Shown here: piece after piece, positions 5,239-9,835 of the stretch
How the letters are laid out: each line of letters begins with the position of its first letter
Numbering within the stretch: the first letter of the stretch is position 1
Virus record (IMG/VR): IMGVR_UViG_2657245081_000002
Reading direction: 5' to 3' (one strand)
DNA: 10,461 nt
From: a virus
Taxonomy: Duplodnaviria; Heunggongvirae; Uroviricota; Caudoviricetes
Notes under the pieces: generated by a model
What the model was told of the DNA's origin: nothing
Database searches by the model: none
The model's input: the letters and a program-made list of their open reading frames with translations, nothing else
Program-made: the position numbers and the translations under genes

Positions 5239-5341
5239 GGTGAAAACGGGCGTCAGGCTGCCGTGATGGCAATATNNNNNNNNNNATTGATATGGCTTTA
5301 GTAGCGGTATCAATATCAGCAGTAGAATAAGTTTTCCCGAT

Positions 5342-5418
5342 GCATCCGTAGCTCAGCTGGATAGAGTACTCGGCTACGAACCGAGCGGTCGGAGGTTCGA
5401 ATCCTCCCGGATGCACCA
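5342..5418 (+). tRNA. tRNA-Arg (anticodon ACG), copy 1
   Basis: 77-nt sequence gcatccgtagctcagctggatagagtactcggctACGaaccgagcggtcggaggttcgaatcctcccggatgcacca is the E. coli argQ/Z/Y/V-type tRNA with encoded CCA. Confidence 0.95.
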
Positions 5419-5480
5419 TCTCTTACTTGATATGGCTTTAGTAGCGGTATCAATATCAGCAGTAAAATAAATTTCCCGAT

Positions 5481-5557
5481 GCATCCGTAGCTCAGCTGGA
5501 TAGAGTACTCGGCTACGAACCGAGCGGTCGGAGGTTCGAATCCTCCCGGATGCACCA
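5481..5557 (+). tRNA. tRNA-Arg (anticodon ACG), copy 2
   Basis: Identical 77-nt tRNA sequence, 62 nt after copy 1. Confidence 0.95.
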
Positions 5558-5691
5558 TATTCTACGTACTTTCAGCGATGAAGGTATGGAAGAGGTGGCG
5601 GTAATAACCGCAGGCACCAGGGAGGATAACGTTGCTTTAGCAACGGCCCGAAGGGCGAGCCGCAAGGCGAGTAATCCTCCCGGATGCACCA
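5558..5691 (+). repeat. Inter-tRNA spacer element ending in a copy of the last 19 nt of tRNA-Arg (aatcctcccggatgcacca, 5673-5691)
   Basis: About 115 nt of non-tRNA sequence containing ggataacgttgctttagcaacggcccgaagggcgagccgcaaggcgagt, fused to an exact copy of the tRNA T-stem and acceptor 3' strand plus CCA. It is followed by the same 62-64-nt leader that precedes every tRNA copy. Confidence 0.8.
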
Positions 5692-5755
5692 TCTCTTACT
5701 TGATACGGCTTTAGTAGCGGTATCAAAAAATCTGCAGTAAAGTAAGTTTCCCGAT

Positions 5756-5832
5756 GCATCCGTAGCTCAGCTGGATAGAGTACTCGGCTACGAACCGAGC
5801 GGTCGGAGGTTCGAATCCTCCCGGATGCACCA
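5756..5832 (+). tRNA. tRNA-Arg (anticodon ACG), copy 3
   Basis: Identical 77-nt tRNA sequence. Start-to-start spacing from copy 2 is 275 nt, which matches my recollection of the chromosomal arg tRNA cluster. Confidence 0.95.
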
Positions 5833-5960
5833 TATTCTCCGAAATCTTCAGCAATGAAGGTATCGAAGAGGTAGCGGAATTAACCGCAGGCACTAGGGAT
5901 GATAACGTTGCTTTAGCAACGGCCCGAAGGGCGAGCCGCAAGGCGAGTAATCCTCCCGGA
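5833..5960 (+). repeat. Second copy of the spacer element (about 90% identical by eye to 5558-5691), cut inside the tRNA 3'-end copy by the N-run
   Basis: tattctccgaaatcttcagcaatgaaggtatcgaagaggtagcgg...ggataacgttgctttagcaacggcccgaagggcgagccgcaaggcgagtaatcctcccgga aligns with 5558-5685, with scattered substitutions. Confidence 0.8.
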
Positions 5961-7081: not shown

Positions 7082-7319
7082 TTACAACCAGTTCTTCCGC
7101 TTAAAGTACAGATACGGTGCCAGGCCCGCGAGGATCATAAAGATAATCGCGGCAGGGTAGCCGAAGCTCCACTTCAGTTCTGGCATAAACTCAAAGTTCA
7201 TGCCATAGCTGGAAGCAACGAGCGTCGGCGGCAGGAATACCACGGATACCACCGAGAAGATTTTGATGATGCGGTTCTGCTCGATGTTGATAAAACCCAT
7301 TGCCGCCTGCATCAGGAAG
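7082..7319 (-). CDS. corA: Magnesium/cobalt transporter CorA, C-terminal fragment (stop 7082-7084)
   Basis: Translation ...[51 protein letters not shown] carries the CorA GMN signature motif and the two C-terminal transmembrane helices. Confidence 0.85.
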
Positions 7320-7329
7320 NNNNNNNNNN

Positions 7330-7459
7330 AGGCATGCTGGCCACCGGCTTACCGTAGACGGATGCCCCTTTAATGGGGATCACCCGGAACAGCCCATGCT
7401 TTTTCGAGCGTTCATACACAATGGTCGGGTCAATCCCGCCAATATCCCAGCAGATACGG
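7330..7459 (-). CDS. A: Terminase large subunit A, internal fragment
   Basis: Reverse-complement translation RICWDIGGIDPTIVYERSKKHGLFRVIPIKGASVYGKPVASMP matches lambda gpA as recalled. Confidence 0.8.
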
Positions 7460-8796: not shown

Positions 8797-8805
8797 ATTC
8801 CCCCA

Positions 8806-8833
8806 CAAAAAAGCCCGCCTGAACCGGCGGGCT
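8806..8833 (-). terminator. Rho-independent terminator between lom and stf (second copy)
   Basis: Reverse complement has stem agcccgcc / ggcgggct followed by a T-run. It is the same hairpin as 1627-1653, with a few flanking substitutions. Confidence 0.7.
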
Positions 8834-8859
8834 GTCATAACACTGTGTTACCTGGCTAA

Positions 8860-9382: not shown

Positions 9383-9655
9383 CTGCTCATCCTTGTTTTA
9401 TCGGGTTATTTGTNNNNNNNNNNCTTTTGTTTACTTCGGAGAAAACAAACATGTTAACCAAAGGCAGTGCCCTTAACGTCGGTAAGGGATGGGCGGTAGC
9501 GTCTTTATTCCGCAAAGCACGCGAAAATCGCCAGGCTAAATTTTACTTAAAGTCAGCAGGTGTAGATTCAATCTGTCAATGCAACACCCCTTTCAATTAT
9601 CTCTTTCGGTGTTTTGAACTNNNNNNNNNNGTTTTAACATCAAACTCAGATGTTA

Positions 9656-9728
9656 AGCGTGAAGGATAACGTTACGCCAGCAACGGCCCGTAGGGCGAGC
9701 GAAGCGAGTCATCCTGCACGAGCCACCA
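9656..9728 (+). repeat. Spacer element upstream of tRNA-Lys ending in a near-copy of the tRNA-Lys 3' end (catcctgcacgagccacca, 9710-9728)
   Basis: ggataacgttacgccagcaacggcccgtagggcgagcgaagcgagt aligns with the core of the tRNA-Arg spacer element at 5625-5672. The 3' 19 nt mimic the T-stem and acceptor 3' strand plus CCA of tRNA-Lys, with 2 mismatches to the authentic gene sequence. Confidence 0.7.
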
Positions 9729-9776
9729 ATTTTAAAGATTGGTTCCGAGTAGAAATCTTTCAGGTAACACCCATAT

Positions 9777-9835
9777 GGGTCGTTAGCTCAGTTGGTAGAG
9801 CAGTTGACTTTTAATCAATTGGTCGCAGGTTCGAA
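9777..9835 (+). tRNA. tRNA-Lys (anticodon UUU), 5' 59 nt; 3' end lost in the N-run
   Basis: gggtcgttagctcagttggtagagcagttgacTTTtaatcaattggtcgcaggttcgaa is the E. coli lysT-family tRNA sequence. Confidence 0.85.

Follow-up and report, generated by a model that had tools for sequence, protein, structure and literature searches.

The tyrT-tyrV locus of Escherichia coli contains 178-bp repeats carrying the 3' end of tRNA-Tyr that were reportedly described between about 1978 and 1981. The rtT RNA is said to have been described by Bosl and Kersten in 1991, and an effect of rtT on the stringent response was reportedly proposed in that same year. The repeats are represented in Rfam by the RtT family (RF00391), and one of them is annotated in K-12 as the small RNA (sRNA) rttR. 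RtT has been without an established function for approximately 35 years; according to a preprint from 2024, how rttR acts is still unknown. Here we analyzed a DNA stretch of 10,461 nucleotides from a virus record (IMG/VR IMGVR_UViG_2657245081_000002), referred to in full as the window, in which a short core recurs in the spacers downstream of tRNA-Lys and tRNA-Arg genes and is followed in each case by the 3' end of the neighboring tRNA. The core belongs to the described RtT family, which the initial annotation of the window had missed. We consider it probable, at roughly three chances in four, that the Lys element is a short-form RtT member and that the Arg spacers are more divergent members of the same family, with units that fold like the top half of a tRNA, are cotranscribed with the tRNAs, and are released by processing.

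RtT-family RNAs beyond tyrT have been reported. In Actinobacillus pleuropneumoniae, Arrc20 and Arrc21 are expressed RtT-family sRNAs adjoining Asn and Lys tRNA genes (PMC4986893); they resemble the Lys units in placing RtT beyond tyrT and, unlike them, come from the order Pasteurellales. A primer from A. pleuropneumoniae ends in an Asn-like acceptor strand plus GCCA, which offers only a glimpse of the rule that a unit ends like its cognate tRNA. The Lys and Arg units share with the tyrT-tyrV repeats and rttR their position, a core of three hairpins (H1, H2, and H3), an ending in the last 18 to 19 nt of the cognate tRNA, tandem repetition together with the trailer, and reciprocal model matches. 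In contrast to the tyrT repeat, the inter-tRNA Lys and Arg units are short and lack its two 5' hairpins, such that the closing helix (P0) closes directly on the core; taken alone, they fall below the Rfam cut-off, and they carry no RefSeq annotation in the genomes examined.

Because the element belongs to an already described family, the finding itself is largely a rediscovery with little that is new, and its weight as given is limited: it reidentifies RtT-type spacers that nearly all E. coli genomes carry but leave unannotated (the core was found in 5367 of 5426 complete genomes, with a per-genome median of 9 places), and the Arg operon spacers are relatives beyond the reach of the Rfam model. 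A literature search, with older subscription papers outside its scope, returned no earlier account in which the lys or arg spacers figure as repeats or sRNAs. What merits further attention is how widely the core is distributed, how the units are built like the top half of a tRNA, and that some copies carry no tRNA end.

The lys and arg spacers and the RtT family

The window consists of 24 short fragments (7 to 2236 nt) chained by runs of 10 Ns; the fragments are apparently small repeat contigs from the draft assembly of an E. coli-like genome. That two features lie on either side of an N run is therefore meaningless, and the proximity of the Lys and Arg loci is an artifact of the chaining; in K-12, the two loci lie approximately 2 Mb apart. 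The Lys locus (positions 9631 to 9835) is exactly one 205-bp fragment, the lysY-lysZ spacer region of the E. coli lysT tRNA operon, and is 100% identical to that region in many complete E. coli genomes. Its first base directly follows the CCA of an upstream tRNA-Lys(UUU), and it closes 59 nt into the next tRNA-Lys. The Arg fragment (5286 to 5960) is a portion of the serV-argVYZQ operon. Features are on the plus strand unless otherwise indicated.

A motif of the form GGATAACGTT-N6-GCAACGGCCCGNAGGGCGAG occurs at 5624, 5900, and 9664 with no more than one mismatch; 200 shuffled versions of the window contained no occurrence. The alignment of the Lys core with the Arg core extends over approximately 69 nt, with a local score reached in 0 of 2000 shuffles. 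The homology of the two spacer cores proposed in the initial annotation was thus borne out, as was its statement that each core leads into 19 nt from the 3' end of its own tRNA: the Arg copy (5673 to 5691) is an exact 19-mer of the tRNA-Arg(ACG) 3' end, and the Lys copy (9710 to 9728; CATCCTGCACGAGCCACCA) matches the tRNA-Lys(UUU) 3' end at 17 of 19 positions, with two mismatches.

The window was scanned permissively with Rfam, in which RtT has a gathering cut-off of 45 bits, and both spacers matched this one family. The complete short-type Lys unit (9631 to 9728) scored 34.4 bits (E value, 2.3e-5), with its 5' side cut by the fragment end; the same lysY-lysZ spacer in K-12 scored 54.4 bits, but only with the 5' half of the model aligned onto the real lysY tRNA. 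Scores for the Arg units were under the cut-off, at 29.2 bits (E value, 0.0015) for the complete unit at 5558 to 5691, 23.3 bits for a second unit at 5833 to 5960 that ends inside its 3'-end copy at the fragment end (core at 5900), and 22.8 to 31 bits for the three arg units of K-12, with E values from 0.0015 to 0.45 overall. In K-12, RtT scored 133 to 137 bits on four units of the tyrT-tyrV locus, one of them being the annotated rttR, and 46.7 to 60 bits on five units of the lysT operon, where the long-type unit after lysQ cleared the cut-off by itself (46.7 bits). The consensus of the RtT model holds the same core and ends in the tRNA-Tyr 3' end. Conversely, a covariance model built exclusively from Arg and Lys units recovered the tyrT repeats (32 bits; E value, 1e-4), and the core sequence and its hairpins are common to the Lys and Arg units and the tyrT repeat, as judged by alignment, model alignment, and covariation counts. 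The Arg E values and the reciprocal model match still indicate homology with RtT. Measured against the Rfam threshold, the Lys units sit at it or close to it, and the Arg units are unannotated, divergent relatives.

Predicted fold, covariation, and the repeated block

Single-sequence folds and unaided RNAalifold agreed on a four-way junction composed of P0, H1, H2, and H3. H1 consists of CGTTGC, a 4-nt loop, and GCAACG; H2 consists of GCCC, a GNA loop, and GGGC; and H3 has 2 to 3 bp and a small loop. In the Lys unit, a leader hairpin with a 9-bp stem and a 7-nt loop (9633 to 9657; minimum-free-energy and centroid folds) precedes the P0 5' strand (9658 to 9667; CGTGAAGGAT), for which the fold, RNAalifold, and pair counts give 9711 to 9720 as the partner; this partner comprises the 3' strand of the copied T-stem and three acceptor nucleotides, and the helix has one A·G mismatch. 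H1 (9670 to 9685; CGTTAC-GCCA-GCAACG) has an A·C mismatch where K-12 has a G-C pair. H2 (9686 to 9696; GCCC-GTA-GGGC) is the near-invariant center of the core, with 98.8% of cells paired across copies and a loop that is always GNA; the conserved GCCC/GGGC stem with a GAA loop at one locus and a GTA loop at the other is as originally described. H3 (GC-GAA-GC) lies at 9699 to 9705, and the last 8 nt of the tRNA-Lys copy (9721 to 9728) form a free tail to the CCA. In the complete Arg unit, the corresponding parts are the P0 5' strand at 5614 to 5627, H1 at 5630 to 5645, H2 at 5646 to 5656, H3 at 5659 to 5668, and the tRNA-Arg copy at 5673 to 5691.

P0 is predicted to be the T-stem of the neighboring tRNA prolonged into the acceptor 3' strand, with H1 to H3 in place of the T-loop. 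Across units, this helix comprises the cognate T-stem plus 1 to 7 acceptor pairs. The P0 5' strand of the Arg unit, GCACCAG-GGAGG, holds 5 of 7 nt of the tRNA-Arg acceptor 5' strand and then the T-stem, and the entire 3'-end copy is paired; the Arg unit (folding z-score, −5.41) resembles an acceptor/T-arm minihelix ending in ACCA. Lys and Tyr units are predicted to form three acceptor pairs only, leaving 8 to 10 nt including the CCA free. As modeled, each unit would therefore mimic the top half of its own tRNA, ending in NCCA. Acceptor/T-arm minihelices and other mimics of the tRNA top half are alike in having a continuous T-stem and acceptor helix followed by NCCA (in the Arg unit, GCACCAG-GGAGG...CCUCC-CGGAUGC-A-CCA); they differ from the units, which have a three-hairpin junction of approximately 45 nt for the T-loop and, in the Lys and Tyr units, the shortened acceptor helix and free tail. 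The junction of the complete Arg unit persisted when the unit was folded between its two flanking tRNAs, in a minimum-energy structure that has a low frequency and in which the two identical tRNAs are cross-paired; this fold bears on the autonomy of the unit's folding and not on its function.

In long-type units (e.g., locus L015 at approximately 7340 to 7400 and the L004 repeats), the 5' part has the form S5-AUGAGAA-S3-x-S5-UUCG..., with S5 and S3 denoting the two strands of the T-stem. This part could form two T-arm-like hairpins in tandem or, instead, a long-range P0 with an inner hairpin; the two could be alternative conformations.

Covariation support within RtT is listed by CaCoFold (PMC7657543). 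In a MAFFT-based alignment of 25 distinct short units, 93.6% of cells were paired, compared with 27 to 50% when partners were slid; all three H3 pairs varied on both sides, and one P0 pair was G-C in Arg and U-A in Lys units. The P0/H1/H2/H3 fold was likewise supported when covariation was assessed, as the initial annotation had suggested, across a broader set. Among 84 distinct copies from many sources aligned with the model, 86.7% of cells were paired versus 36 to 52% with slid partners, 15 of 23 pairs changed on both sides (5 of 6 in H1, 3 of 3 in H3, and 7 of 10 in P0), and the covariation score was reached by 0 of 500 shuffles. The 84-copy alignment was fitted to the model, which favors structure; the MAFFT-based result for the 25 units is free of that bias.

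Two positions set the window Lys allele apart: a G-to-A change at 9674 breaks an H1 pair, and a C-to-G change at 9722 lies in the copied acceptor strand. The folding z-score of the Lys unit is −2.46, versus −3.52 for the K-12 allele. Many E. coli, BLR(DE3) among them, carry the identical allele, as does a record labeled Enterobacter hormaechei (locus L053), which is possibly mislabeled or recombinant.

The extent of the unit was defined by listing every spacer in the tyr, lysT, and arg operons of K-12. A unit begins right after the CCA of a tRNA and finishes in a copy of the last 18 to 19 nt of the same tRNA; its place is immediately behind a tRNA gene of the same strand, within or at the end of a tRNA operon. 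The rttR annotation starts 7 nt past the tyrV CCA and ends exactly at the CCA of the copy. The sequence that follows a unit is the same as that which follows a tRNA with no unit, as seen with the 62-nt argY-argZ spacer, the lysQ trailer and terminator, and the tyrV trailer. Because of this identity, the repeated block is "tRNA 3' end plus trailer plus unit." Such a block is the expected product of unequal crossing-over, which accounts for the tandem arrays with periods of 178 nt (Tyr), 153 to 155 nt (Lys), and approximately 184 nt (Ser-like). Copies within one operon are well accounted for by tandem duplication.

The Arg fragment illustrates this arrangement. Three identical tRNA-Arg(ACG) genes (5342 to 5418, 5481 to 5557, and 5756 to 5832) are present; the first two are separated by a unit-free spacer of 62 nt (5419 to 5480), to which the 64-nt spacer after the complete unit (5692 to 5755) is near-identical. 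The order in the window is thus tRNA-Arg, 62-nt spacer, tRNA-Arg, argV-argY-type unit, tRNA-Arg, and argZ-argQ-type unit, whereas that in K-12 is argV, unit, argY, 62 nt, argZ, unit, argQ, unit. Either a copy-number or order variant that arose through unequal crossing-over or repeats collapsed in assembly would give this difference. An antisense ARAGORN call of tRNA-Arg(tcg) at 5501 to 5572 (minus strand) overlaps a real tRNA-Arg and was rejected as spurious.

The initial annotation had considered a conserved RNA element associated with tandem tRNA genes. The RNA element is upheld by the covarying structure and the cognate 3' ends; the restriction to tandem genes is not, in that units are also found past the terminator, behind the final gene of an operon. 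In K-12, a long-type unit past the lysQ terminator (locus L002, 1354 to 1601) is flanked by a 54-nt direct repeat made up of 18 nt of the tRNA end, the trailer, and the terminator. A unit equivalent to it follows lysV of the valU operon in enteric-type viral contigs (loci L150 and L157). In L157, the 3'-end copy after lysV is lost beyond ATCC; an integration junction was considered and rejected, since the loss looks like simple decay beside a coding sequence.

Cores with and without a tRNA end

A collection of genomes was scanned with the core alone, and the counts refer to the matches listed. At least 33 intact and at least 3 decayed units, all of them from Enterobacterales among the matches listed, continued into a cognate Tyr, Lys, or Arg tRNA 3' end; approximately 90 control matches in GC-rich genomes had no such tail. 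Units occupy the same loci across enterobacterial genera, and the E. coli units examined were all in tRNA operons (tyr, lysT, and arg), with the valU-lysV unit occurring in the enteric-type viral contigs. In Moellerella, tRNA-Lys has a T-to-C change in the 3' strand of the T-stem, the copy has the same change, and the P0 5' strand reads GGG, versus AGG in E. coli. The copy therefore varies together with its tRNA, and the change in P0 compensates for the variant that the two share.

A metagenome scan was designed to exclude the enteric Tyr, Lys, and Arg tails and yielded at least 120 loci. Among the matches listed, 37 units had a same-strand tRNA within 250 nt upstream, and the last 18 nt of that tRNA were copied exactly in 30 of the 37 and with no more than one mismatch in 33. 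The tRNAs were Ser (four anticodons), Pro, Thr, Glu, Arg(CCG), Lys(CUU), variants of Lys(UUU), and a variant Tyr; overall, the core is joined to the cognate 3' ends of at least eight tRNA identities. By inspection and folding, P0 tracks the tRNA in the variant Tyr and Ser(UGA) units (GGAGGUGG/CCACCUCC and GGGGUGGG/CCCACCCC). A comparison of P0 complementarity with swapped tails gave medians of 4 for both observed and control pairings and is powerless because most tails are of the Ser type and share ATCCC. The RtT cut-off was passed by metagenome units of Lys (94 and 76 bits), Tyr (69.5 bits), Ser-like (54 bits), Ser (49.8 bits), and Lys(CUU) (49.4 bits) types and missed by those of Arg(CCG) (31.8 bits), Pro (28.6 bits), and Glu (25.8 bits) types. 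In locus L171 (6659 to 12453), five Ser-type units form an array behind a tRNA-Ser(CGA)-like gene of which only the 3' half is present. This array lies between a prophage remnant (capsid, protease, and portal) and a P4-type integrase beside a fragment of another tRNA, flanks that mark a hotspot for integrative elements.

The expectation that the core is always linked to a tRNA end held for every enterobacterial copy listed and failed for Pseudomonas, Rhodanobacter, and many metagenome contigs. The initial annotation had named the occurrence of the core without a tRNA association as a refuting observation, and the copies in these other bacteria bear on that point. In Pseudomonas and Salinicola, an intergenic core with no tRNA is enclosed in a AAAAACAGGC...GCCTGTTTTT stem, which in Pseudomonas is terminator-like. 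Rhodanobacter and rhizosphere contigs carry the core among GGGACTCGG simple repeats with no tRNA end. The Pseudomonas, Salinicola, and Rhodanobacter loci are L005 (approximately 7260 to 7420), L060, L036, L057, and L122. In many sediment contigs, the core is found in palindromic elements of approximately 200 nt with GTCATTCCGG...CCGGAATGAC or repetitive extragenic palindrome (REP)-like inverted repeats, again with no tRNA end; examples are L236 (approximately 2715 to 2935), L177, L192, L202, L210, L214, and L235, as well as L199, L223, L244, and L272; across these examples, the inverted repeats are GTCATTCCGGCGCAGGCCGG...CCGGCCTGCGCCGGAATGAC or the REP-like GTAGCCCGGATGCAGCG...GCATCCGGGCTAC. 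Rfam scans assigned no family to copies lacking a tRNA end, whether from Pseudomonas, Rhodanobacter, or metagenomes, and a BLAST search of plasmids with the Pseudomonas element returned only cores derived from enterobacterial chromosomes.

As its other alternative, the initial annotation had named a family of small insertions at tRNA 3' ends, and such insertions may be how the units arose. The core may be, or may once have been, a small nonautonomous module, mobile or recombining, that inserts into hairpin loops, especially at the GGTTCGA|ATCC position of the T-loop; the tRNA-specific 3' ends would then be target sequence and would not belong to the element. We regard this origin as unlikely; it concerns where the core came from and can coexist with membership of the spacers in RtT as processed tRNA-operon units. 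Consistent with a mobile module, the same core occupies the same T-loop position with the 3' ends of at least eight tRNA identities, it is also found inside palindromes resembling REP or miniature inverted-repeat transposable elements (MITEs) and in other stems without a tRNA, a 54-nt direct repeat flanks the unit after lysQ, and the AATCC at the junction is common to all host tRNAs and would offer microhomology. Judged by the features of MITE and REP elements, the picture is divided: the E. coli units examined are all tRNA linked, and it is elsewhere that the core lies inside palindromic repeats. Against a mobile module, the E. coli units have neither a transposase nor an integrase associated with them, the loci are the same across enterobacterial genera, and the direct repeats are equally explained by tandem duplication, the array period being unit plus trailer. 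P0 also reaches into the acceptor strand and compensates for changes in the tRNA, which an inert insertion would not need.

In its broadest form, the idea would be that the three-hairpin core is an independent module grafted repeatedly into hairpin loops, namely, the T-loop position in the mimics of at least eight tRNAs, REP- or MITE-like palindromes, and other stems. We think this doubtful. If it were true, RtT would be the visible tip of a much larger and mostly unannotated class, and the units would represent either a general tRNA-operon device for processing, insulation, or decoy functions tailored to each tRNA or a new small element that targets T-loops.

A second explanation invokes an integrase: an island would have entered a tRNA 3' end, duplicated it as attL and attR, and then lost nearly all of its interior. 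The direct repeat of an 18- to 19-nt tRNA 3' end from the T-loop onward is the classic signature of tRNA-targeting integrases and is the feature that the units share with attL/attR, and the Ser-type array of L171 does lie between a prophage remnant and a P4-type integrase. Unlike the sequence between attL and attR, however, the interior of a unit is approximately 80 to 115 nt of structured, noncoding sequence with no open reading frame (ORF) or mobile-element genes, its hairpins covary, and nearly all E. coli genomes have the core. The regular tandem arrays, which include trailer and terminator, also argue against a scar, and the L171 array resembles native tRNA-downstream sequence beside integrated elements. 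This explanation is thus very unlikely.

Equally little probability attaches to the proposal that a unit is a decayed tRNA pseudogene left by tandem tRNA duplication. P0 equals a T-stem, the Arg units match 5 of 7 acceptor 5' nucleotides just 5' of it, and the tyrT-tyrV unit weakly resembles the anticodon and variable region of tRNA-Tyr (P = 0.058). Against this, local alignments of the leader with the tRNA body were nonsignificant for any unit (best P values, 0.03 to 0.06 before correction), neither ARAGORN nor the Rfam tRNA model detected the units, and a covarying three-hairpin core shared among unrelated tRNA identities excludes independent decay. The view that the whole unit is a degenerate tRNA was rejected beyond the T-stem and acceptor part on the basis of the leader alignments.

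Least credible of all is that the resemblance is due to chance, which the shuffles exclude, or that the spacers encode a small protein like the 29-codon tpr ORF annotated within the tyrT repeat, since indels of 1, 2, and 3 nt in H3 between conserved flanks, together with compensatory substitutions in the stems, form the pattern of an RNA or DNA structure and not of a coding sequence.

Proposed processing, opposing evidence, and other features of the window

If the spacers are RtT members, their path through the tRNA operon can be outlined. The unit would be cotranscribed with the tRNAs. Because its 3' end and trailer are those of a real tRNA, it would be handled by the tRNA-processing enzymes: an endonuclease would cut just past each CCA, RNase P would cut at the next tRNA, and 3' exonucleases would halt at the structured CCA end. 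The unit would thereby be released as a discrete RNA with its CCA end shielded by P0, like the 171-nt rtT RNA of tyrT. This outline draws on the ends of the rttR annotation and on established E. coli tRNA processing, and a discrete stable RNA is known for tyrT only. Within an operon, the "tRNA 3' end plus trailer plus unit" block may have spread through unequal crossing-over, and the identity between unit and tRNA could be maintained by gene conversion or selection. As candidate roles, the released RNA or the structured spacer could insulate identical tandem tRNAs and so prevent misfolding, could serve as a decoy toward tRNA 3'-end-binding factors, or could modulate the stringent response. Spacers of the 3'ETS-leuZ type are similar in being persisting by-products of tRNA-operon processing that potentially act in trans; they differ in pairing with sRNAs through unstructured sequence and have no tRNA-end mimic, conserved junction, or sequence relationship to the units.

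If this wider picture holds, it provides three experimental handles, namely, the top-half shape of the unit's own tRNA, the covariation with that tRNA, and the occurrence with many tRNA identities in many bacteria. It would also offer handles on the folding and processing of tandem identical tRNAs and on mimics as decoys for tRNA-end-binding factors.

Several observations weigh against placing the spacers in RtT as processed, tRNA-tied RNAs. Short Lys units exceed the Rfam cut-off for the sole reason that the 5' half of the model aligns onto the real upstream tRNA; the Lys unit without that alignment scores 34 bits, and no Arg unit reaches the cut-off. The damaged window allele, with its broken H1 pair and altered acceptor base, is nevertheless common in E. 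coli, which suggests weak constraint on this copy. Counts of G·U versus A·C, 63 versus 72 overall and 20 versus 8 in H1 to H3, come from an alignment in which the P0 columns are misaligned for long-type units; the excess of G·U in the hairpins leans toward the transcribed strand, and the overall counts do not. A 2014 study of lysT processing reports only "large spacers" (135 to 150 nt) that are removed by RNase II and PNPase, with no mention of a repeat or structure (PMC4176162). Finally, with the core found without a tRNA end, its role need not be tied to tRNA.

The rest of the Lys fragment consists of the remainder of the spacer (9729 to 9776) and the first 59 nt of a tRNA-Lys(UUU) gene (9777 to 9835), the lysZ equivalent by genome annotation, whose 3' side is cut by the fragment end (Rfam tRNA, 48.7 bits). 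Rfam matches in the window to a plastid family and to HPnc0260 were spurious antisense echoes of tRNAs. At approximately 8805 to 8835, between two convergent-looking coding stretches, a G+C-rich hairpin (gcccgcc...ggcgggc) follows an A run; it looks like a minus-strand terminator and is unrelated to the spacer element.

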